Assembly (NCBI GenBank): GCA_963771175.1
Contig: CAVYSY010000031.1
Coordinates: 128,001 to 192,000 of the forward strand
DNA: 64,000 nt
Origin: an uncultured delta proteobacterium
Lineage (GTDB): Bacteria > Myxococcota > Myxococcia > Myxococcales > Myxococcaceae
Reading direction: 5' to 3'
The translations under genes were made by a program, and so were the position numbers. The notes under the pieces are model-generated. The model saw only the letters and a list, made by a program, of their open reading frames with translations. It was not told where the DNA came from and made no database searches. Every line of letters begins with the position of its first letter. Position 1 is the first letter of the stretch. Of this stretch, positions 34,511 through 46,943 are shown one piece after another.

Positions 34511-34641
34511 CCCACACCTCCGGGCAAACCACGGGGAGGGGGAACCGTGGTCTCGGGACTACAGGAAGGCCCGGGCTGCCGCGTCAACCCTCTACGTTGG
34601 GACCTTCTTGGAGGACGTAGCAGGAAGGAGGGAACCACCCT

Positions 34642-35560
34642 CTACGGGAAGGACACCCCGTCCACGGAAACACCCGGCGCCTCGCCGTCCTGCCACAGCG
34701 AGAGGGAGAAGCGGCCCCGGGCCTGCGTCTCCGTTGCCTCGGCCTCCACCACCACGCGCTGCCGGTCCAGGCCCGGAGCAATGGGCTCCAGCGGCCACAC
34801 CCGCCGCACCTTCAGCCGCACGCCGCCCTCGCCCACCAGCTCCGCCCCCGCCACCGTCCAGGGCCGCTCGGACACGTTCTGTCACCCACAGCTCCACCGC
34901 CACCACCCCCCGGGCGCGGTAGCTGGTGGCGTCCCACACCGTGAGGGGCTGTCCGGGGCGCTGGGTGACGTCCCTCTCGAACGTCAGCGTACGGGCGGCG
35001 ACCCCCTTCATGTCCAATTGACTATCGGCGAGCAGGCCGGTGAGCCCGTCCGGCCTCCTGCGCTCCCGCTCCAGCTCCCCCTGGCATTGCCGGGCCTGGA
35101 TGCGCTCCGCCTCGGCCTCCCGCCAGCAGGTGCTCGGCACCTCGGGCTGGAGCTCCACGTTCACCTGCGGCTGCACCCGAGCGGCGTCCACCACCAGGAC
35201 GAAGTCCGCACTCGCCGGCACCGTCCCCTCCACGAAGCGCACCTTCAACCGCGGCCGTTTGCCCGTCCCGAGCGTGCCGGAGGGCTGCAACACGAGCATG
35301 TCCTCCAACACCCGCACTCGCACGAAGTGCTCGTGCTCCTCCACCTCCACTCCGGCGAGCGTCAGGGGAGCGCCAAACAGCAGCGTGGTGAGCAGCCCCG
35401 GGCCGATGTACAGCTCAGGCACCTCTGGCGGCGCCTTCGCCCGCAGTGCGATGGAGCGGGGCGCGCCCGCCGCTTCCCCAGGTGGAGTGGAGGGCTGCGC
35501 GGCGGCGGCTCCCGCGAGGAGGACGAGCAGCGGGAGGGCGGCGGGCGTAGAGAAAGGCAT
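34642..35560 (-). CDS. DUF2381-family protein, frameshift near 34880
   Basis: Signal peptide, ELYIGPGLLTTLLF, PASADFVLV, PDGLTGLLA, WPLEPI, RVVVEA; downstream of Ser/Thr kinase as typical in myxobacteria. Confidence 0.8.
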
Positions 35561-35643
35561 GGAACCTCCGGAGTGGTGCACCCTAGCAGGGACCTCCGGC
35601 GTTGAGCCCGGCCTTTCCCACCAGGTCGCGCCCCCGCACTCCG

Positions 35644-37735
35644 CTACTCGAAGCGCTCCACCGCCTTGACGTGCGGGGCGGCGTTGACCCTGGCGGTGTC
35701 TGGTGTACCGCTGGGCTCGCGCACGAGGCCCCGCCCGTAGACCGAGCCCCAGTCCCACGCCTCCACGCAGACGGGGACCGTCTCCCCACCGGGCCGATGG
35801 GCCTCGGTGAAGCGGCCATACACGCGCTCCTTGCCGAAGAGCAGGCGCCCCGTCAGCACCGTGCCCGCCTCCAGCTTCCCCAACGGATCTCCGCAGGCGG
35901 AGTTGCGCGCCCGGCCCCTCCCGCACGGGCCAGAAGCCCGGCTCACGCACGCCAAGAAACGCAGTCCCGGTGTCGTCCCCGATTTCGATGCCCAACCGCC
36001 GCATGGCTTCCTGGGAGCCGGGCGGGCATGCCTCGGGGGCGGGGGTGTCACGCACCTGGGCGCCGGGACAACCGGCGGCGAGCGCGCCCGCGGTGGCGGT
36101 GCACAGGGCCTTGGCGACGGCGTTGCGCACCGTGCCCTTGCGCTGCTGCTTCTCCTGGGTGCCAGAGTCCTGCTGCTGGGTCTTCACGCGCGTGCTGTCC
36201 TTGGCGAGTGTCGCGAAGGCGACGGGCGCGGGAGTGGGAGCCCACGCGGGCGCCGCGCCCCCATCACCATCCAGCGGGCACCACGCGGGCGCCACTTCCT
36301 GGCCGGACAGCGCCCACGCCACCAGCGAGGCGGGCGTGGCCCACAGCACGGGCACGGCCTGGGGTGGCGAGTCCTCCCGAGACGGAGCGGGCGCGAAATA
36401 CAGGGCCAGGGTGGCGAGCAGGGCCAGCGCCCCCAACACCAGCATCCCGCCCCTCCACCCCCGGAAAGTCGTGCGCGGCGGGGCGACGGACGCCACCTCC
36501 GGTACGTCCGCGACCACCGGGGGCGGCTCGCAAGCGGGCGGCACGAGCGCCTCGGCTTCCTCCGAGAGCGGTGCGTCCACTCCCGGTAACGGCTCGGGGG
36601 TGGCGGCCAGCGTGGTGGCGGGCCTGCCGCGCCGGGGCCGGTCCTGCTCGCGGGCCAGCACCCGGCGGTTACGCGCCAGGGCCTGCTCCAGGTTCATCCA
36701 TCCCTCCTGGTGGGTGGTGGCGCCGTCCGGGCCCCACGCCTCGCACAGCGGCACCTCCCAGCTCGCGTCCGCCCCGGCCAGCGCCGACTCCAACGCCCCG
36801 CACACCGCCTCGGCGTCCGGGTAGCGCGCCTCGGGCTGCTTCTCCAGCATGCGCTGGCACACGTCCGAGAGTGCCCGGGGCACACGCGGGTTGCGCACGT
36901 GCGGCGGCACGAGCGCGTCGTGCAGCACGGCGTCCGCCATCTCCGCCTCGAGCACTCCGTCGAAGGGCAGGCTACCGGTGAGCAGCCAGTAGAAGAGGAC
37001 GCCCAGCGCCCACAAGTCGTCCCGGGCGCTCGCCACATAGCCCTCGTCAGGCTGACGCTCGCGCAGGAAGCGCCACGCCTCCGGGGCACGGCATTGCAGG
37101 GAGCCCGGCAACAACCCCCGCGACACCTTCGGCGCCCCGGCGAAGGTGCCCACCCCGTAGTCCACCAGCACCGCACCGCCGTCCGCCTCCCTCACCACCA
37201 CGTTGTCCGGCTTGACGTCCCGGTGGAATACCCCCACCGAGTGGGCCCCCCACAGTTGCGCCGCCAGCGTCAGCACCGCCCGCGCTGCCCACCGGGCCTC
37301 GGGGTTGTGGCGCTCCACCCACACGTCCATGGGCAGCCCCGGCACGTACCCCGTGACGATGTAGAGGAAGAGCGGGCCGAAGCCCGGGCAGTGCCCATGG
37401 TGGCCGTGACTGTCCACCACCACCAGGCCCACATGGTACAGCCGCAGCAACACCTCCAACTCCCGCAGGGCCCACCTCCCCACGTGCGGCAGGTACAGGA
37501 GCTTCACCGCGAACAAGGTGTCGCCGCGCCGGGCCCGGAACACGGTGCCAAAACCGCCCGCCCCCAGCCGCTCCTCCAGGGTGACGCCGCCCACCACCTC
37601 GCCCACGCGCGGCAGGAAGCCCTCTTGCGCCCCCTCCTTCATGAGCCGCCGCAGCACCTGCCAGTGCCGCCGCCGCGCGAGGGCTCGCCGCACCTCCTCC
37701 TGTCGCCCCTCCGTTGTCTGCTCCATGCGCGCCAC
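35644..37735 (-). CDS. Membrane Ser/Thr protein kinase, frameshift near 35890
   Basis: LGAGGFGTV, AVK, HRDVKPDN, DYG, APE, DDLWALG; TM; C-terminal RVYGRFTEA...PVC domain in second frame. Confidence 0.9.
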
Positions 37736-37914: not shown

Positions 37915-38721
37915 TCACTCGTCGTAGGACTCGTCGTCGTAGGCCGTGGGGACCGCGTCGTAGTACCCGCGCGAGGAAGGAATCGACACCCGGCTCATGA
38001 GGAAGAAGCCGAGGGCGAAGACAACCAGCAGCGCCACCCCGTAGGTGATGGGGCGGCTGGGGCGCGCGCGCCAGGCCCACAGCCGCTCGCGCCGACGCTG
38101 GAAACCGGGGGCGGCCACGTACTCCTTCCAGGCCTCCTCGCGCACCAGCGCCGCTTCCCCGTCCTGGCCGCCCTGGTCCAGCACCCGCGCCAGCAGCACC
38201 CGTCCCTCCACCGTCCCGGGCCGGGCCACGCGCAGGCGCTCCAGCGCCTCCTTCGCGCCCTTCAGGTCCCCGCGCGCCAGTCGCCAGCGTCCACGCTCCA
38301 GGTCGATGGCCCCCATCTGGTAGGCCGGCTCCACCTTCGAGGCCTCCTCCAGCAGCAGCTCGCCCCGGGCCGCGTCCCCGGCCCCCAGGTACGCCACGCC
38401 GAGCAGGAACAGCGTCCCCACGTCGTCATCGCCCGCCTCCAGGTTGGGCTTGAGCACCTCCACCGCCGCCGCGTACTTGCGTCGCCCCACCCACAGGTCC
38501 GCCAGCTCGTAGCGTGCCCGCCGATCATGCGGGTTGCCCTGCAGCACCCGCTCCAGGTGCGCCGCCCGCTGCCAGCGCTTCAGCGCCCGGAACGGGCTCG
38601 GCAGGATGCCCACGGTGTAGCGGTCCGCCATCCATATGAAGCCCAGCACCAGCGCCGCCGACAGCACCGGGCTGCGCGTCAGCGCGGAGAGCAAGATGAA
38701 GAGGAACCAGGAAGAGCTCAT
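37915..38721 (-). CDS. Membrane-anchored TPR protein
   Basis: N- and C-terminal TMs; TPR-like helices (ARYELADL, TLFLLGVAYLGAG). Confidence 0.75.
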   Translation of the reverse strand: MSSSWFLFILLSALTRSPVLSAALVLGFIWMADRYTVGILPSPFRALKRWQRAAHLERVLQGNPHDRRARYELADLWVGRRKYAAAVEVLKPNLEAGDDDVGTLFLLGVAYLGAGDAARGELLLEEASKVEPAYQMGAIDLERGRWRLARGDLKGAKEALERLRVARPGTVEGRVLLARVLDQGGQDGEAALVREEAWKEYVAAPGFQRRRERLWAWRARPSRPITYGVALLVVFALGFFLMSRVSIPSSRGYYDAVPTAYDDESYDE

Positions 38722-38989
38722 GCGCGGCGCGTCATATCAGGCGCCGCGCGCACCATGGAAATCGCTCCTGAGGTGGCGTGGCCTTTCGCCACAGGGGCGT
38801 TCCGCCACGGTCCCTCGCCCGCTCCACGAGCAGTCTTGAATTCTTTGAGCACAAGACGATGGCGAGGGGCCGTCCCTGGATTCGCAATCCAATTGCGTCC
38901 GGTCATAAACTGAACACGTTTGGCGCGCAGGGGGCTCTGGCATTGCACTCGGAGCGCGCGGGCATTCCTCCACCCCACTCCGGGGCATC

Positions 38990-41900
38990 ATGCACACTCC
39001 TCATCCACGACTCCCGGCCGTGCTCCGTCGCTCCGCGACGCGGGCGTATGCGCCGGTCCTGCTGCTCTCGCTGGCGGTGTTGGTGACGTCCGGCGCCGCT
39101 CGGGCTCAGACCCCGTCCGCTGAGTGCAACCCCGCGGTCGCCCCCAGCGAAGACGCCGAGCCCTGCGTGCGCTACTGGCGCGACCAGCGCGGCAGCTTCG
39201 CGCTCGTCGGCAACACGCTCGCGCAGGACTGCCGCCAGACGACGCCCAGACCGCTGGTCGGCAACATGCCGCCCATCTGGACGTATGACCCGGCCGCCAC
39301 GGAGCGCGGCTGCTACGCGGGCAACAGCGCCCCGAACTTCTTCTGGACCCTGGATGACTGGACCGCCGAGGGCACCTCGGCCAGGACCAGGCCCACGCTG
39401 CTTCTCGATAACACCAATGACCCCGCCACCGCCTTCGATTCCCTGAAGGCGCGCAGCCAGAGCGTGCTCGTGCTGCCCGCGGGGGCCAGGGTGACGTATG
39501 CGCGCCTGTACTGGGCGGCCAGCCGGCTCAACCCCTTCGCGGGCGACAAGGCGGAGCCCGACCTCACCGTCATCCTCGCCCGACCGGGCGTGGCGGGCTT
39601 CAGCAGGAATCTCCAGGCCCTGCCCAACGACTGGTCCTTCGAGCACACCAGTTCCGAGACCTACCAATACCAGTCCTCGGTGGACGTCACGGACATCGTG
39701 AAGGCGTACGGTCCCGGCGCCTACCAGGTGAGCGACGTCCAGATCTTCCCGCTGGACATCTCCAAGAGCCAGTACACCTTCGCCTCCTGGTGGATGGTGG
39801 TCTTCTACGAGCTGGACGGCGCGGACAAGCGGCACCTGAAGCTGTTCGACAGCATGAAGGTCGTGCGCGGTGCCTCCTCCACCACGGTGGCCCTCAACGG
39901 CTTCTACGTGCCCACCTACGCGGTCGACGCCAAGCTGGGCGTCATCTCCTTCGAGGGAGAGGAGCCGGACCCGGACACCGATGACTCGCTCGAGTTCAAC
40001 GGCGTGACGGTGTCCGACGACATGAACCCGGCCAACAACTTCTTCAACAGCTCGCGGAGCTGGACGAAGCAGAAGACCGGCCCGGGGGCGTACACGACGC
40101 TCGTGGACACCGACACGCCGCTCGGCGGGCTCGATGCCGGAACCGACGGGGTGCTCGACTCGCTGCCCATCAGCAACAATGATGACCGTCCCCAGCTCTC
40201 CGGCACGGCCAGCAGCATGTCGGGGTTGGACCTGGACGTGGTGGACGTCACGGTGGCTCCCGGCCTCAAGTCCGCCCAGGTGACGGCCATCAGCCGCGTT
40301 TCTGGCGGCGACCACTTCTGGATGGGCGGCTTCGTCACCGCCATCACCACCCAGGCCCCGGACTTCACCAACACCATCAAGTCGGTGAAGAACCTCAGCC
40401 GCGCGGACGGCACCATCCGTCCGGGTGACACCATCGAGTACACCATCAGCACCACCAACGAGGGTGACGATCACTCGCGAGACACGGTGCTCACGGACCG
40501 GATTCCCGACGCGCTGGACTACGTCCCCGGGTCCACCCAGGTGCTCACGGTGGTGGCGAGCGACACCGCCACGCCGGGCTTCAAGACGGACGCCTCTGGA
40601 GATGATGTCGCCGACTACGACGTGGCCACCAAGGTCCTCACCATCCGCCTCGGACGGGGCGCCACGGCCACCAAGGGCGGCCGGGTGGGCATGGGCGAGA
40701 GCACCAGCATCTCCTTCCAAGCGAAGGTCAAGACGAGCGCCATCGGCGACGTGGAAAACCAGGGCTTCATCGAGGCCGGCGGCGAGCTGGGCATCGACCC
40801 GGTGAAGACGCCCACCCGCGCCCCGGATGGCACCGGCCCCACGAAGATCTCCGTCGTCATCGTCCCGCCGCCCGTCATCCTCTCGCCGGCGAACGGCTCC
40901 GTCATCACCAACACGTCGCCCACGTACACCGGCACGGCCCAGCCCGGGACGACGATCACCGTGCGGCGCCCGGACGGCACCGTCATCTGCACCGCCACCG
41001 TCGACGCCTCCGGCAACTGGTCCTGCACGGGGACCACGCCGCTGCCCATGGGCACCAACACCATCGAGGTGGTGGCCGAGGACAACGACGGCAACGTGAG
41101 CAAGCCGGCCACCTCCATCTTCACGGTGGACACCACCGACACCGACGGTGACGGCATCCCCGACGGCCTCGAGGACAAGGACCACGACGGCGTCGTGGAC
41201 CCGGGTGAGACCGACCCGACGAAGACGGACTCCGACGGTGACGGCATCCCGGATGGCACCGAGGACAAGGACCACGACGGCGTCGTCGACCCGGGCGAGA
41301 CCGACCCGACCAAGACGGACTCCGACGGCGACGGCCTCCCGGACGGCACCGAGGACAAGGACCACGACGGCGTCGTCGACCCGGGCGAGACCGACCCGAC
41401 GCAATCCGCGACACCGACGGCGACGGCATGTCCGACGGCACCGAGGACAAGGACCACGACGGCGTCGTCGACCCGGGCGAGACCGACCCGACTAAGACGG
41501 ACTCCCGACGGCGACGAGCACCCCCGCGACACCGAGGCAACGGCATCCCCGACGCCGTCGAGACGGCCACGGGCACCGACCCGACCAAGGCGGACACCGA
41601 CGGCGACGGCATCCCCGATGGCATCGAGGACAAGGACCACGACGGCGTCGTCGACCCGGGCGAGACCGACCCGACGCAAGACGGACTCCGACGGCGACGG
41701 CATCCCCGATGGCACCGAGGACAAGGACCACGACGGCGTCGTGGACACGGGCGAGACCGACCCGACCAAGACGGACACCGATGGCGATGGCCTCTCGGAT
41801 GGTGCCGAGGACAAGGACCACGACGGTGTCGTGGACACGGGCGAGACCGACCCGACGAATCCCGACACCGACAACGACGGCATCTCCGACGGCGTCGAGT

Positions 41901-44601
41901 CGACCACGGGGACCAACCCGCTCGACGATGACTCCGACGATGACGGCCTGCTCGATGGCACCGAGGACAAGAACCACAACGGCTCCGTGGACTCGGGCGA
42001 GACCGACCCGCGCAAGGCCGACACCGACGGTGATGGCCTCCAGGATGGCACCGAGTCGGGCCTCAGCACGCCCGAGGGCTCGGGCACGGACCTGACCGTC
42101 TTCCAGCCCGATGCGAACCCGAGCACCCGGACGGACCCGACCAATCCCGACACCGACGGCGGCAGCGTGTCCGACGGCGCCGAGGACAAGGACCACAACG
42201 GCCGCATCGACGCGGGCGAGACCGACCCGCTCAACAAGGCGGACGACAAGCCCGTGGACAGCAAGGACACGGACGGCGACGGCGTGCCCGACGCCACCGA
42301 GGCGGAGCTCGGCCTCGACCCGAACGACTCGGACAGCGATGACGACGGCGTGCCCGACGGACTGGACGGCCTCACCGACACGGATGGGGACGGCCGCATC
42401 GACGCGCTCGACGCCGACAGCGACAACGACGGCATCAAGGACGGCACCGAGCTGGGTGTGACGCGGGCCAACGCTCCCGCGGGCACCAACCTGGACTCGC
42501 CGAACTTCGTCCCGGATGACGACCCGTCCACCACCACCAACCCGAAGAACGCCGACACCGACGGTGGACGGTCCTCAAGGATGGTGAGGAGGACAAGAAC
42601 CACGACGGCCGCTTCGCCTCGGGCGAGACCGACCCGAAGGACCCGGACACCGACCACGGTGGCCTGTCCGACGGTGACGAGGTGAAGAGCAACACCAACC
42701 CGCTCGACGACCAGGACGACTTCCTCGTCGTTGGCCGTGGTTGCAGCACCTCGGGTGGCTCTCCGCTTGGGTGGCTGGCCGCGCTGATGCTCGCCGCGCC
42801 GATGCTGCGCTCGCGGCGCTCCGCTCGCCGGGGCTCCGTGCTGGCCGGTGGGTTGATGGGTCTCCTGGGTGTGCTGGCCGCTCCGGCGGCGGACGCCCAG
42901 GCCCCGGCCTCCTCCCCGCTGTCCCAGTCCATCGACGTGCAGCGCTACAAGCCCGGCCCGGGTGCCACCGACATCCTCGGCGTGAATGGCGCCAGGGTGG
43001 GTGGGCACCTCGGCTGGCACCTGGGGGCCTCGCTCAACTACGCGAGCAACCCCCTGGGCTTCCTCGACCCGCGCCAGGACGACTTCGTCTACGGAATCGT
43101 CGCCCACCAGGTGACGTTGGACCTGATGGGCTCGCTCTCGCTGTGGAACCGGTTCGAGCTGGGCGTGGCGCTGCCCGTCACGTACCAGGCCTCCGAGAGC
43201 GGCGCCTCCGTCATGCCGGCCTTCTCGGATGGCGTGAGCGGCGCTGGCGTGGGTGACCTGCGGCTGGTGCCCAAGGCCCACCTGCTCAACGCGGGTGGGT
43301 TCGACCTGGGCCTCTCCGTCCCCGTCCTGCTGCCCACCGCGGGCGGCCAGGGCTTCCGGGGCGGCTCGGGTGTCAGCGCCCGGCCCCAGCTCGTGGGCGA
43401 GTGGGGCAACGGCAACGGCCTGCGGCTGGTGGCCAACCTCGGCGCCAACCTCCAGGGCGAGCAGCAGGTGCGCAACCTGAAGACGGGCACCGAGCTGCTG
43501 TACGCGGTGGGTGCCCAGGTGCCCCTCAGCGAGAAGCTCGCGCTGCAGGCCAACGTCGCGGGCGCGTTCGGGCTGAACGACATGGACATGGAGGGGCGCC
43601 CGCTGGAGGTGCTCGCGGCGGTGCAGTACCGCCTCTCCAAGGGACTGGCCGCCCACGTGGGCGGTGGCCCGGGCCTCACCCGCGGCTACGGCACCCCGGG
43701 CTTCCGCGTCTTCGCCGGCCTCGACTGGACCCAGCCCGGTGAGCGCGTCGCCGCGCCTCCTCCGGCCCCCGTCGACACGGACGGGGATGGCCTCGTCGTG
43801 GATGGCCTCGCCGTGGATGGCCAGGACAAGTGCCCCACCGAGGCCGAGGACAAGGACGGCTTCCAGGACGAGGACGGCTGCCCCGACCCCGACAACGACG
43901 GGGACGGCATCGCCGACGCACAGGACAGGTGCGCCCTCCAGCCCGAGACGGTGAACGGCTTCGAGGACGAGGATGGCTGCCCGGACGAGAAGCCGGCCGT
44001 GGACTCGGACAAGGACGGCCTGATGGATGACCAGGACAAGTGCCCGGCCCAGCCCGAGGACAAGGACGGCTTCCAGGACGAGGACGGCTGCCCGGATCCG
44101 GACAACGACAAGGACGGCGTGCCGGACTGGGAGGACCAGTGCCCGATGCAGCCCGAGGTCATCAACGGCGTGAAGGACGAGGACGGCTGCCCCGACGAGG
44201 GCAAGTCCAAGGTGCGCCTGGAGTCCAAGCGCATCGTCATCCTGGACAAGGTGTACTTCGCCACGGCGAAGGACGTCATCCTTCCCAAGTCCTTCGACCT
44301 GCTCAAGCAGGTGGGCTCGGTGCTGAAGGCCAACCCGCAGCTCGAGCTGCTGCGCGTGGAGGGCCACACGGACAACCAGGGCAACGACGCCAGCAACCTG
44401 AACCTGTCGCAGCGGCGCGCGAACAAAGTGCGCGCGTTCCTCATCCGTGAGGGCGTCGCTGCGGAACGGCTCGAGGCGGTGGGCTACGGGGAGACGAAGC
44501 CCGTGGATACCAACAAGACGGCGGCTGGCCGTGAGAACAACCGCCGCGTGGAGTTCAACATCCTGAAGGTCGCCGGCGAGGAGGCCGAGAAAGCCCCGTA
44601 A
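38990..44601 (+). CDS. Large surface protein (DUF11, Ig-like, Asp-rich repeats, internal MYXO-CTERM-like tag) fused to beta-barrel/TSP3/OmpA module (AgmC/TraB-like); frameshifts ~41400-41680 and ~42570
   Basis: Signal peptide ARA-Q; PGDTIEYTI (DUF11); TYTGTAQPG...GNWSC (Ig); DxDGDG repeats continue across the shift at 42570 into ORF 42682..44601; OmpA VEGHTD...LSQRRA...NRRVEF. Confidence 0.8.
41138..42040 (+). repeat. Intragenic 90-bp (30-aa) tandem repeat
   Basis: Unit DxDGDGIPDGTEDKDHDGVVDPGETDPTKT at 41138, 41228, 41318 and onward, degenerating. Confidence 0.9.
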
Positions 44602-44629
44602 GGGAATCCCCGGCACGTCCGGAAGACAG

Positions 44630-44672
44630 ACGGCGCGAGCAGGCAAGCGACCTGCTCGCGCCGTTTCCGTTT
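44630..44672 (+). terminator. Probable terminator
   Basis: 14-bp stem ACGGCGCGAGCAGG/CCTGCTCGCGCCGT followed by TTCCGTTT. Confidence 0.65.
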
Positions 44673-44688
44673 GAGGTAGGAAGGCACC

Positions 44689-45708
44689 GTGAGCTCCCTT
44701 CTTCCTCGCCCCCTCCTGATTCCCCTGCTCATCCCGCTGCTGCTGGCGGCGGCGCCTCCCACCGCGCCTGCCCCGCCCCGCCTGGAGGATGCGCTCCCCG
44801 ACACCTTCTCCGGAGTGGAGCGCGTGGTGGCGGTGGGCGACGTGCACGGGGACGTGGACGCGCTGAAGGAGGTGCTGCGACTGGCGGGCCTCATCGACGA
44901 GAAGGGCCGGTGGAGCGGCGGCAAGGCGCACCTGGTGCAGACGGGAGACATCCCGGACCGGGGCGAGCACACCCGCGCCGCCTTCGAGTTGCTGATGCGA
45001 CTGGAGGGCGAGGCACTCGCCGCGGGCGGCCGGGTCCACGCGCTGCTGGGCAACCACGAGGTGATGAACATGCTCGGGGACGTGCGCTACGTCACTCCGG
45101 GCGAGCTGGCCTCGTTCGCGGACCAGAGCCCCGAGCCGGATACGTCGGGCTCGCCGCGAGGGCTCAACGGGCACCGTGAAGCGTACGGGCTGAAGGGGCG
45201 CTACGGCCAGTGGATGCGCCGGCACGCCGCGGTGGTGCGCATCGATGACACGCTCTTCGTGCACGGCGGAGTCGCGCCGATGGTGCCAGCGAAGACACTG
45301 GCCGAGCTCAACCGCTGGGTGCGGCAGGACCTGTTCCCCGGCAACCCTCCTGGTGGAGCCAGGGACGCGCAGGGCCCGTTGTGGTTCCGCGGCTACGCGC
45401 TGGGAGCCGAGGAGGCCGCGGGACAATCCCTCGACGTGGTGCTGCAGCGGTTCGGCGCGAAGCGGATGGTGATGGGTCACACCACCGACCGGGATGGGAA
45501 GGTCCGGACGCGGTTCGGCGGGAAGGCTGTGTTCATCGACACCGGCCTGAGCACCGGTTACGGCCGACACCTCGCCGCGCTGGAGCTTCGTGGCGGCAGG
45601 GTCACCGCTCTCTACAAGGAGGGACGCGTGGAGCTGGTGGCGCCCCCGGCGGCTCCGGTTCCGAGCGCCACGCAGAGGGTCTCCCCCGCCCCGCGCGTCA
45701 ACCCCTGA
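44689..45708 (+). CDS. Secreted metallophosphoesterase (Shewanella-like PPP phosphatase)
   Basis: GDVHG, GDIPDRG, GNHE, HGG, GPLWFRG, GHT, IDTG; signal peptide. Confidence 0.9.
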   Translation: MSSLLPRPLLIPLLIPLLLAAAPPTAPAPPRLEDALPDTFSGVERVVAVGDVHGDVDALKEVLRLAGLIDEKGRWSGGKAHLVQTGDIPDRGEHTRAAFELLMRLEGEALAAGGRVHALLGNHEVMNMLGDVRYVTPGELASFADQSPEPDTSGSPRGLNGHREAYGLKGRYGQWMRRHAAVVRIDDTLFVHGGVAPMVPAKTLAELNRWVRQDLFPGNPPGGARDAQGPLWFRGYALGAEEAAGQSLDVVLQRFGAKRMVMGHTTDRDGKVRTRFGGKAVFIDTGLSTGYGRHLAALELRGGRVTALYKEGRVELVAPPAAPVPSATQRVSPAPRVNP

Positions 45709-45715
45709 CGCCGCC

Positions 45716-46943
45716 TTACAGGAGCCTCGCGCTGATGGCGCTGTGCACGTCCGCGCCGGCGTCGGTGAGCACGAGCCTCCGGCCATCGAGCCTCGCCAAC
45801 CCGTGCTGGACCAGCCGCGCCACTTCCGCCCGGCGCGGCTCCGGGTCCTGGCCGTAGAGCGTACACACCGCCTCCCAGTCCACCCCGGAGCGCAGCCGCA
45901 GGCCCATGGCCAGCCGCTCCTCGAAGAGTTCCTGGGGGCTCAATTCCTCGCGGCTCGACTCCGGCAGCTTCCCTTCCTCCGCCGCCGCGCATGTACGCGT
46001 CCGAGCCACGCAGGTCCACGTAGCGGTAGCCCGAGGGCCGCTCGCCCGGCCCGGACGTGAGCAGCATTCCCGTGGCGCCCACGCCCAGCGCGAGGTACTC
46101 GCCCCCCGTCCAGTAGAGCGCGTTGTGCCGCGAGCCGTACCCGGGCTTCGCGTGGTTGGAGATTTCGTAGCGCCGCAGCCCGTGCGCGGCGTAGGCCTCG
46201 TGGATGGCCTTCGTCATCTCCACCACGTCCTCGTCCGGCGGCAGCGCCAGCTCGCCCTTGTCGAGCTGCCTCGACAGGGGCGTGGCCACCGCCAGCGACT
46301 CGCGCTCCACCGTCAGCGCGTAGGTGGACAGGTGCTCGGGCTCCATCGCCGCGGCCTGGCGCGCGTCCGCTTCCGCCTGCGCCCGCGTCTGCCCATGCAC
46401 TCCGTAGATGAAGTCCATGGACACCACGTCGAAGCCCGCCCGCCGCGCCATCTCGTACGCCGCCACCGCCTCCTGGCCCGTGTGCTCGCGCCCGAGGGCC
46501 TTCAGCGTCTCGTCCCGGAAGGACTGCACGCCCAGCGAGAGCCGGTTGACGCCCGCGCCCCGGTAGCCCGCGAAGCGCTCGGCGTCGGCGACGCTCGGGT
46601 TGGCCTCCAGGGAGATCTCCGCGCCCGGAGCCACCCGCAGCCGCGCCGCCACGCCCTCCAGCACGTGCGCCACCCAGCGCGGGTGCCAGAGGGAGGGCGT
46701 GCCACCGCCGAGGAAGATGGACTCCAGCCGCCGCTCGCGAAGCGAGGGCTCCGCCGCCAGCCGCGCATCCAACTCCGCCAGCACCGCGCGCGCGTAACGC
46801 TCCTCCGGCACCTGCCGCACCACCGCCACCGCGAAGTCGCAGTAGGGGCACTTCGACAGGCAGTACGGGAAGTGGACGTAGAGCCCGAAGCGCGCCGCCG
46901 GAGTCCCCGTGAGTGGGTCGATGGGGCCCGCGAAGTCCATCAC
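45716..46943 (-). CDS. hemW: Radical SAM heme chaperone HemW, frameshift near 45985
   Basis: LYVHFPYCLSKCPYCDF, GGGTPS, YEISN, SRHNALYW; C-terminus in ORF 45716..46009. Confidence 0.92.

Follow-up and report, generated by a model that had tools for sequence, protein, structure and literature searches.

A probable two-part envelope precursor encoded by a single gene in a member of the Myxococcaceae, with an internal MYXO-CTERM-like tag ahead of a TraB-like barrel

In Myxococcus xanthus, the MYXO-CTERM surface protein TraA and its partner TraB, which is described as consisting of a signal peptide, a barrel, TSP3 repeats and an OmpA domain, form a 1:1 complex (PMC12045341). They are encoded by separate genes, traA and traB, reported to overlap by four bases (PMC3325183). 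MXAN_5598 (AgmC type) combines within one ORF a large adhesin region, an internal MYXO-CTERM, an outer-membrane barrel and an OmpA domain, a layout noted in the Discussion of a 2025 article in mBio and compared there with TraA plus TraB; the N-terminal part was proposed to be processed and surface-anchored (PMC11980579). The same article cites work on LPXTG and on Haloferax volcanii ArtA substrates concerning sorting tags that are not C-terminal. Ordinary substrates of the myxosortase MrtX have a Cys motif, a helix and an Arg cluster as their MYXO-CTERM tag (TIGR03901; PMC11980579; bioRxiv 10.1101/2023.06.07.544157). Their precursors carry an N-terminal signal peptide.

A tripartite sorting signal placed inside a chain is reportedly still processed, both for LPXTG, in the work of Navarre and Schneewind in 1994, and for an ArtA substrate of Haloferax volcanii, in that of Abdul Halim et al. 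in 2017. Enzymes and tags are other than those considered here, and in neither case is the tag known to be followed by another signal peptide or another mature protein. FbcH of Bradyrhizobium is a cytochrome b/c1 membrane polyprotein cut by signal peptidase at an internal signal peptide, but it belongs to an inner-membrane respiratory complex and has no sorting tag and no outer-membrane partner. Classical autotransporters also combine a passenger and a C-terminal barrel in one chain. However, no membrane tag or signal peptide lies between the two, and the passenger is threaded through its own barrel.

The window (the whole stretch of 64,000 nucleotides that was analysed) contains, at 38990-44601, one gene, which probably encodes an envelope precursor in two parts, a reading that covers both the fusion and the processing proposed for it below. 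An adhesin and barrel layout was observed here in a preliminary description of this DNA and is confirmed. What the analysis shows is that the two parts share a frame, that each of the signal elements is conserved, that the domains fold as expected and that both protease genes are present. The layout runs from a signal peptide through an adhesin-like passenger, a MYXO-CTERM-like tag and a signal-peptide-like segment to the barrel, TSP3 repeats and OmpA domain. The features are as follows.

38990-39106, + strand, predicted N-terminal Sec-type signal peptide, 39 aa, ending A-R-A before Gln (read from the translation)
39107-41134, + strand, passenger head, about 430 aa without a family match, then a DUF11-type repeat and an Ig-like domain
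41135-42711, + strand, passenger stalk of Asp-rich bacterial TSP3-like repeats of the calcium-binding type (TSP3_bac, 28.5 bits)
41395-41690, + strand, TSP3-like repeats out of frame (three-frame translation; Thr/Pro/Arg-rich out-of-frame text)
42567-42572, + strand, two single extra bases, at 42567 and at 42572, which disrupt the frame in this assembly (absent from contigs of runs X1, X3, X6 and X7)
42712-42744, + strand, short conserved strand and G-x-G-C motif, tag Cys codon TGC at 42742-42744; predicted docking segment (alignment A1, complex model)
42745-42807, + strand, MYXO-CTERM-like tag, spacer plus transmembrane helix, Cys to first Arg 21 aa (TIGR03901)
42808-42831, + strand, Arg cluster, 5 Arg in 8 aa; proposed cytoplasmic tail of the tag and n-region of the signal
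42832-42897, + strand, putative internal signal peptide, h- and c-regions over 22 aa, with Pro at -5 and A-x-A at -3/-1 (A1; stand-alone homologues)
42898-43776, + strand, TraB-like outer-membrane beta-barrel, COG4313/FapF-type fold (PF13557, AlphaFold2 model, Foldseek)
43777-44211, + strand, TSP3 repeats with Cys, linking the barrel to the OmpA domain (match to 5wtl)
44254-44601, + strand, OmpA-like peptidoglycan-binding domain, C-terminus and stop codon (PF00691)

The DUF11-type repeat is at passenger aa 474-580 (TIGR01451, 41.4 bits) and the Ig-like domain at aa 637-715 (Big_6, 50.6 bits; Big_13, 44.7 bits). Partial matches of the stalk to the CglD model stem from its TSP3-like repeats. Behind the junction, profile matches, an AlphaFold2 model and Foldseek agree on the beta-barrel, TSP3 repeats and OmpA domain that had been proposed. 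The barrel matches PF13557 (27.2 bits, cut-off 22), and the model (P0003) is all-beta over residues 56-310, with about 12 long strands across residues 70-310. In Foldseek the barrel matched FapF (E 1e-10, TM(target) about 0.6), with a sequence identity of only 16-17 %, and 4rl8, a COG4313 channel, and there was a 38 % identical match to 5wtl, the periplasmic part (TSP3 and OmpA) of an OmpA from Capnocytophaga. The OmpA domain (PF00691, 79.3 bits, cut-off 27.2) is modelled at a pLDDT of about 80-87 and matched OmpA-like structures at TM(target) 0.7-0.85. The neighbouring genes are a TPR gene and a metallophosphoesterase gene, one on each side.

Among NCBIfam models, the one for TraB (NF033763) matches the C-terminal half best, but the score of 286 bits is far below the cut-off of 700. 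The passenger has neither a PA14-like domain nor the Cys-rich stalk of TraA, and the two parts share one frame where TraA and TraB are encoded by two overlapping genes. It had been suggested that AgmC-like proteins may share the layout, and they do: the C-terminal halves of AgmC-named proteins are 57-63 % identical to that of the window, and AgmC_N (NF047640, the NCBIfam model for the AgmC N-terminal domain) and the junction are found in one open frame in G153, G191 and G180. However, AgmC_N has no match at E <= 1 in the window's passenger, and is also lacking (E <= 1e-10) from the orthologues P0004 and P0020. The AgmC-type gene is directly upstream of ftsZ in 3/3 genomes checked, whereas the window's gene is not beside ftsZ, which is on another contig. 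The layout itself is real and widespread, but it was already briefly noted in 2025, for MXAN_5598; the passages of PMC11980579 on that protein mention neither the second signal peptide nor cleavage by signal peptidase I.

The interpretation that accompanied the layout is supported, in that all of its predictions at the level of sequence hold. All positions that had been given are correct, with the Cys codon at 42742-42744, the ATG at 42802, the Arg cluster at 42808-42831 and the end of the AxA site at 42897. The proposed run of MYXO-CTERM models did match the tag, but at scores slightly below the cut-offs (TIGR03901, 17.2-18.8 bits, cut-off 20; TIGR03382, 15.5 bits, cut-off 15.85); at E <= 0.01, TIGR03901 matches 16 of the 21 junction pieces. 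The tag also differs from those of MrtX substrates in being internal, with about 590 residues after it. In A1, an alignment of 21 junctions, G32, G34 and C35 (G-x-G-C) are invariant, as are A86 and Q87 (-1/+1), and A84 is at least 90 % conserved. The putative internal h-region is Gly/Ala-rich, the c-region ends A-D-A, followed by CAG (Gln) at 42898, and a signal peptidase I site is predicted between 42897 and 42898.

An orthologue was found in 16 of 17 same-genus genomes (82-93 % identity). Thirteen of these are in open frames of 1810-2556 aa and, once fetched, all 13 had the in-frame junction; G011, G013 and G002, which have shorter open frames, cut by a contig end in the two that were checked, were left out of the junction count. 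The junction is also in frame in 7/7 paralogous loci whose passengers are of other kinds (cadherin/Big_9; lipoprotein-type signal plus DUF11; short Pro-rich) and in 41 further loci, and none of all these loci has a stop after the Arg cluster, as had been anticipated for homologues. The layout is kept at the amino-acid level in 62/62 junctions (many of them close kin and not independent) and is therefore more than chance. In 61, a parser found Cys, 18-25 aa, 4-7 R/K, 14-29 aa and a small-x-small site before Gln (AxA in 56, VxA in 2, GxA in 2 and AxG in 1), although the uniform Gln at +1 is partly by construction because the parser favours sites followed by Gln. The remaining junction, L075, was read by eye only and has RRR, then AxA followed by Arg instead of Gln. 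The single Arg patch proposed to be shared is found across the junctions as one basic cluster, of 3-7 R/K, that separates the two hydrophobic segments and has only 3-4 residues in some distant members.

Stand-alone homologues (L071, L072 and L076-L079) begin with a start Met and an ordinary signal peptide, whose alignment to the internal segment starts at profile positions 57-82. Public annotation treats such proteins as products of single genes; among 1189 long hits, the best 120 are 1069-2962 aa in length and cover at least 92 % of the 599-aa C-terminal half. By hand count of the match table, the 116 genomes from the family include at least 77 with a full tag-to-barrel match; one of these is the unpublished G224, which the claim does not need. 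Fused forms were also found in 5/5 genomes picked from other families of the order, and fused loci there (L081, L083-L089 and L092) have Cys-rich stretches before the tag. Among five genomes picked from other orders of Myxococcota, two contain clear fused forms (G068, 2676-aa frame; G187, 2445-aa frame), G059 has an open frame of 563 aa with the complete junction, the match in G110 contains a TGA, and G052 has a barrel match only.

As assembled, the gene is divided into two ORFs, 38990-42685 and 42682-44601, and the 4-base overlap between them (GTGA) results from the two extra bases. The 2-base slip previously placed at about 42570 in fact consists of two separate bases, 42567 and 42572, both missing from the contigs of 4/4 public runs (X1, X3, X6 and X7; four studies). 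Removing both restores a regular TSP3 repeat, in frame with the downstream part. An open frame extends from 42520 to the stop codon at 44599-44601. The three-frame translation points to at least two, and probably four, single-base slips in 41395-41690; their net shift is zero and the ORF therefore stays open. These slips are an addition to the preliminary description, which omitted them. Errors of assembly are the most likely cause of the frame breaks in this copy.

If the slips were real, this copy would be a true pseudogene and the strain would make neither product as described. At least three, probably six, single-base slips inside 1.2 kb would fit this, and the best run shares a fraction of 0.72 of the stretch's words, the source strain perhaps not being among the runs. 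However, contigs about 98-99 % alike from 4/4 runs are without the two extra bases, the slips in 41395-41690 compensate each other, and the gene outside the repeats is intact and 82-93 % identical to orthologues. An AgmC_N-type gene in the same assembly (C21:86842-88111) is also split over several frames, which indicates assembly indels, and we regard a pseudogene as unlikely. It is extremely improbable that the locus comprises two separate TraA/TraB-like genes, with an assembly artefact in the junction masking a stop or a frame change. Assembly indels near the junction and the two ORFs with a 4-base overlap recall the arrangement of traA and traB (PMC3325183), but the overlap here is upstream of the tag and arises from the two extra bases. 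Three independent DNA contigs (three studies) cross 42700-42900 without an indel, and none of their substitutions, with codons read by eye, creates a stop. The junction is likewise in frame in 13/13 orthologous loci, some of them from complete single-contig genomes, and in another 48 loci.

The remaining alternatives accept the fused frame. The second segment could stay uncleaved, leaving one chain with a two-helix inner-membrane anchor, or with a cut by myxosortase only that tethers the barrel/OmpA half, and the Gly/Ala-rich h-region and the existence of inner-membrane-anchored OmpA-like proteins (MotB and TssL models match the OmpA domain) are compatible with this, as is the fact that cleavage of the precursor is itself inferred. 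We consider it quite improbable, as the small-x-small site before Gln and the c-region Pro are kept in very divergent members while the rest drifts, stand-alone homologues carry cleavable N-terminal signal peptides to which the segment aligns, a 12-strand-type barrel needs release to reach the outer membrane, and MXAN_5598 is listed among outer-membrane vesicle and membrane fraction proteins (PMC4158809). Initiation at the ATG at 42802, 5' of the Arg cluster, would yield a textbook signal peptide, and the barrel half might come mainly from this start, with the fusion an incidental read-through. However, a Met is found near the loop in only 23 of 61 junctions and is missing in 38; an internal ATG, the one start codon considered, is therefore not conserved, and no Shine-Dalgarno-like GGAGG was seen by eye 5' of 42802. 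The upstream frame is without a stop in 62/62 and the full chain would therefore be translated anyway, making this explanation very improbable.

Under the preferred reading, that of a single precursor cut twice, the N-terminal signal peptide would send the passenger through Sec across the inner membrane until the internal tag (G-x-G-C, helix and Arg cluster) acts as a stop-transfer. The second hydrophobic segment would borrow the same Arg cluster as its n-region, re-enter the membrane as a signal peptide and deliver the barrel-TSP3-OmpA half to the periplasm. A cut by signal peptidase I after A-x-A (42897/42898) would release this half, which would insert into the outer membrane and bind peptidoglycan through its OmpA domain, and a myxosortase of the MrtX type would cut at the presumably lipidated Cys, the adhesin passing to the cell surface and a hairpin peptide of about 50 aa being left in the inner membrane. 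We infer both cleavages, the lipidation, the surface route and the complex; the genome does encode a myxosortase core (NF040914, 138.7 bits, cut-off 100) and signal peptidase I (TIGR02227, 142.4 bits, cut-off 47).

The two products would be made 1:1 and probably stay together, the pre-Cys strand docked on the barrel as proposed for TraA on TraB. A complex model of the barrel and this partner scored 0.83, and the best of three controls 0.00; the 0.83 mark is reached by 116/157 solved complexes and 2/215 mismatched pairs, counts that apply only roughly here because the model was run on custom alignments. Three runs share at least 84 % of contacts, with the interface at partner residues 47-57, namely the pre-Cys strand and G-x-G-C (42712-42744), and the partner chain, at a pLDDT of at least 43 and under 50, has an uncertain fold of its own in the model. 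The strand is modelled on the long-loop face of the barrel, presumably the outer one judging from loop lengths in the AlphaFold2 model, a placement similar to that predicted for TraA atop the TraB barrel.

The gene under study (38990-44601, + strand) is represented in the ORF list by two overlapping + strand ORFs, 38990-42685 (1231 aa) and 42682-44601 (639 aa). From 42520 on, the frame of the second is open and reads the end of a TSP3 repeat, G-R-G-C, a hydrophobic helix and an Arg cluster, the first Arg being 21 aa past the tag Cys. The elements that delimit the parts of the protein are:

38990-39106, + strand, N-terminal Sec-type signal peptide, as read from the translation
42733-42744, + strand, tag motif G-R-G-C, with the Cys at 42742
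42808-42831, + strand, Arg cluster, 5 Arg in 8 aa
ending at 42897, + strand, Gly/Leu/Ala-rich segment that ends A-D-A and is followed by Gln

Downstream of the N-terminal signal peptide, the first ORF encodes a region with no assigned family, a DUF11-type repeat, an Ig-like domain and Asp-rich TSP3-like repeats. The Gln is followed by a barrel-type domain, Cys-containing TSP3 repeats and an OmpA domain. As 590 residues lie beyond the Arg cluster in the same frame, the tag is not at the C-terminus of the protein. All of the coordinates in the preliminary description proved correct when checked in the sequence. A promoter and terminator scan of 38600-44800 returned nothing exceeding shuffle expectation. 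The upstream neighbours, both on the - strand, encode a fusion of a Ser/Thr protein kinase with a DUF2381 domain (34592-37735, 1047 aa) and a TPR protein (37915-38721), and those downstream encode a metallophosphoesterase (44689-45708, + strand) and a radical SAM protein (45612-46943, - strand). No functional link to the adhesin gene is obvious from these identities.

The signature of MYXO-CTERM (Cys motif, hydrophobic helix and Arg-rich cluster) is present, and the motif is invariant in A1, the 21-row alignment of junctions. The tag itself scores under the curated cut-offs, with 18.8 and 17.2 bits for TIGR03901 (cut-off 20) and 15.5 bits for TIGR03382 (cut-off 15.85). TIGR03901 is matched at E <= 0.01 by 16 of 21 related junctions, the best at 2.8e-5. 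The genome encodes both a myxosortase-core protein (NF040914, 138.7 bits, cut-off 100) and a signal peptidase I (142.4 bits, cut-off 47). In the C-terminal half, the OmpA-like domain PF00691 scores 79.3 bits (gathering threshold 27.2), with TM(target) of 0.7-0.85 to solved OmpA-like domains, and the barrel (COG4313/PF13557) scores 27.2 bits (gathering threshold 22). An AlphaFold2 model of this half, of moderate confidence (mean pLDDT 64, pTM 0.43), is all-beta over residues 56-310, with about 12 long strands, and the OmpA domain is well predicted. Foldseek matched the barrel to FapF (E ~1e-10, target-normalised TM ~0.6) and to the COG4313 channel 4rl8. Further matches were numerous OmpA-like domains and, at 38% identity, the periplasmic TSP3 plus OmpA portion of Capnocytophaga OmpA.

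In the assembly, the passenger and the tag are in different frames, and this was examined using one public run from each of four studies (three DNA libraries and one RNA library), compared over 42350-43250. In the contigs of every run a single base is absent at 42567 and another at 42572, and without these extra bases the repeat continues in frame to the tag. The three DNA contigs cross the junction (42700-42900) with zero indels, and reading their codons by hand showed that their substitutions create no stop. The RNA run (X7) lacks a contig over 42722-43090, a gap that is uninformative on transcripts. Further upstream, at 41395-41690, the Asp-rich repeats leave and rejoin the frame at least twice, and probably four times, via single-base differences. 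The net shift is zero and the ORF stays open, but the Thr/Pro/Arg-rich text of about 100 residues in the first-ORF translation is Asp-rich repeat in the wrong frame.

The assembly is a draft (58 contigs, 81.7% complete), and a region elsewhere in it, not in the window (contig C21, 86842-88111), has an AgmC_N-type domain divided among several open frames, the pieces matching model positions 1-210, 212-337, 339-377 and 369-406. An OmpA-domain match lies just upstream (C21, 86125-86781). The split domain suggests that there are indels in the draft beyond the window. Because the runs lack the extra bases and another gene of the draft is also frame-split, assembly indels are the likelier cause of the slips in the window gene, and we hold this view with some assurance. 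None of the runs contains the complete stretch (best word share 0.72) and the window strain is possibly not among them; that its copy is a true pseudogene in the source strain is an unlikely explanation. Programmed frameshifting at 42567 was rejected as an explanation, as relatives simply lack both bases.

Of 17 genomes from the same genus, 16 contain an orthologue of P0003, the protein of the C-terminal half (82-93% identity), and the remaining genome is 73% complete. For thirteen of the 16, the open frame is 1810-2556 aa long. It is shorter for the remaining three, and in both of the two that could be checked a contig end cuts the frame. The preliminary description had proposed that adhesin, tag, signal peptide and barrel are fused in one frame, and this is confirmed: tag, Arg cluster and signal-peptide-like segment share a stop-free frame in 20/20 fetched loci (13 orthologous and 7 paralogous), and 61 of 62 extracted junctions were parsed alike. 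The passengers of the paralogues differ, and include cadherin/Big_9 repeats, a lipoprotein-type signal with DUF11 repeats, and short Pro- or Gly-rich linkers. Invariant positions in A1 include the tag G-x-G-C and the Ala and Gln at -1 and +1 of the predicted cleavage site, and Ala occupies -3 in at least 90% of rows. A second fused junction is present in the window's own genome (contig C52, 91393-91746; profile positions 16-144), in an open frame of 1258 aa.

In the single layout found by the parser in the 61 junctions, many of which are close kin and some of which come from genomes picked by score, the first basic residue lies 18-25 residues from the Cys, a basic cluster of 4-7 Arg/Lys falls within 4-18 residues, and 14-29 further residues lead to a small-x-small motif before Gln. 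This motif is AxA in 56, VxA in 2, GxA in 2 and AxG in 1, counts obtained with a parser that favours Gln-followed sites. The 62nd junction, read by eye, has RRR and AxA|R. Acidic residues follow the tag Cys in at least 11 of the 62. In distant members the loop is reduced to three or four basic residues, and therefore one basic patch must serve both hydrophobic segments.

Judged by its sequence features, the second hydrophobic segment is a predicted signal peptide, with the basic n-region, hydrophobic h-region and small -3/-1 residues of a Sec type I signal. The c-region Pro and the small -3/-1 residues are kept while the rest of the segment drifts. Stand-alone homologues open with Met, one or two basic residues and a hydrophobic stretch ending AxA|Q, and their N-terminal signal peptide aligns with the internal segment of the fused forms. 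A Met is found near the loop in only 23/61 junctions, and hence, considering ATG starts alone, an internal start is not conserved.

The barrel (P0003 residues 33-325) was modelled in complex with the last 57 passenger residues, ending at the Cys, and a separate alignment was supplied for each. Over three runs the median score was 0.83, against 0.00 for the highest-scoring of three controls. This mark is reached by 116/157 solved complexes and 2/215 mismatched pairs, a comparison that is only rough because own alignments were used. The three runs share at least 84% of contacts; the pLDDT of the passenger piece is at least 43 and its own fold is uncertain. In the model, the interface is formed by the last eleven passenger residues, including the Cys, and by barrel residues 82-99, 137-139, 223-226, 263-267 and 290-300, all of which are in long connections on one side of the barrel in the AlphaFold2 secondary structure. 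We infer that this side is the outer face, and the model supports binding of the passenger end to the barrel. By eye, the barrel loop at 43045-43101 (P0003 residues 82-99) contains an N-P-L ... D-D-F-hydrophobic motif like that of the passenger end before the Cys (42700-42735). To our knowledge, such a complex has no solved structure. The predicted complex agrees with the AlphaFold picture of TraA atop the TraB barrel in the available passages of PMC12045341.

The mechanism put forward in the preliminary description, namely that tag and signal peptide form a hairpin that would be cut by myxosortase and signal peptidase I, is the best-supported reading and a probable one. A classical autotransporter (type Va) was rejected, as two hydrophobic segments and an Arg cluster separate passenger from barrel, and the barrel belongs to PF13557 and not to an autotransporter barrel family. 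The dual-cleavage reading can be extended to a rule for the Myxococcota, for which the fused TraB-like genes would serve as a 'Rosetta stone'. In this proposal, which taken as a whole we regard as evenly balanced, TraB-like barrel-OmpA proteins would be dedicated docking and anchoring partners of a class of MYXO-CTERM surface proteins; the hairpin of tag and signal peptide, cut periplasmically at both ends by the two enzymes, would be a modular device for producing adhesin and anchor 1:1; and the strand before the lipidated Cys would dock on the outer face of the barrel.

One protein of this kind, the M. xanthus AgmC-type protein MXAN_5598, is already in print. According to the passages of PMC11980579 (mBio 2025) available to us, a large adhesin region makes up its N-terminal part, the MYXO-CTERM is internal, and the C-terminal part contains a barrel and an OmpA domain; the protein is likened to TraA and TraB combined, and the N-terminal part is probably processed and surface-anchored. 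The present analysis adds an internal signal peptide that is conserved, an Arg patch shared by tag and signal peptide, the extent of the family and the predicted docking strand. The Discussion passages of PMC11980579 make no mention of an internal signal peptide, and searching the in silico myxosortase preprint for 'internal', 'fusion' and 'OmpA' gave no hit. No other discussion of the layout was found in the portions covered of the literature on MYXO-CTERM/OmpA, MXAN_5598 and myxosortase.

Among the best 120 of 1189 long hits, Myxococcus and Corallococcus proteins of this type are annotated AgmC, a name linked to gliding motility. The window protein has the same C-terminal module (57-63% identity to AgmC-named proteins among the matches listed, where its closest named relatives are from Archangium species). 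However, the AgmC N-terminal domain NF047640 (cut-off 275 bits), for which the AgmC-named protein P0065 scores 379.5 bits, was not matched by the passenger protein P0001 at E <= 1 or by the orthologues P0004 and P0020 at E <= 1e-10. In three genomes from two genera, NF047640 and the junction share one open frame directly upstream of ftsZ. The MXAN_5598 gene adjoins ftsA and ftsZ (PMC11980579, in part), whereas the window gene does not adjoin ftsZ, which in its own genome is on contig C32. The C-terminal half of the window protein has the architecture of TraB, namely signal peptide, barrel, TSP3 repeats and OmpA domain (PMC12045341, in part), but P0003 scores 286.2 bits for NF033763 (cut-off 700) and the window protein is therefore not TraB itself. 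TraB, an outer membrane exchange protein, is encoded by a separate gene overlapping traA upstream of it, whereas the window type is one continuous frame in relatives.

The fusion provides independent genomic support for the TraA-TraB partnership model, and extends it to adhesins with quite different passengers, AgmC included. If dual cleavage is true, the gene would represent a compact Gram-negative route to a surface adhesin and a wall-anchored outer-membrane partner from one chain, and would be one of a very small number of polyproteins in bacteria that are divided at an internal signal peptide. The model is directly testable in M. xanthus, where an mrtX deletion and epitope tagging already exist.

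The A1 profile matched 135 of 301 genomes of the phylum. The open frames that contain full tag-to-barrel matches range from about 730 to 5200 aa, the shortest being truncated by contig ends. For stand-alone barrel-OmpA genes the match begins only at profile position 50-77, and most of their frames are 600-790 aa long. Configurations of this type are called rare in the passages of PMC11980579, but by a hand count of the profile-search table a full match is present in at least 77/116 sampled genomes of the window's family (including one unpublished genome, G224). Many such public proteins carry only the names 'OmpA family protein' or 'Ig-like domain-containing protein'. Beyond the family, genomes were picked by score (good E-values). 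Each of the five from other families of the order contains between one and four fused forms. Of the five from other orders, two show the fused form clearly (G068 and G187, frames of 2676 and 2445 aa), G059 has a full junction within a 563-aa open frame, the match in G110 is broken by a TGA, and G052 has a barrel match only.

At three loci (G153, contig C1, 5213726-5213923; G314, contig C55, 40332-40538; G210, contig C564, 43004-43201), the match to a TraB-like barrel start begins only at profile position 74-77 and does not include the tag, yet the open frames are 3224-3470 aa long. These could be another kind of fusion or chance open frames in GC-rich DNA. In other families of the order, the fused proteins at loci L081, L083-L089 and L092 (genomes G034, G250, G223 and G031) have Cys-rich stretches immediately before the tag. 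They recall the TraA stalk and may be true TraA-TraB-type fusions, and some small genomes contain four such genes (G034, 3.3 Mb).
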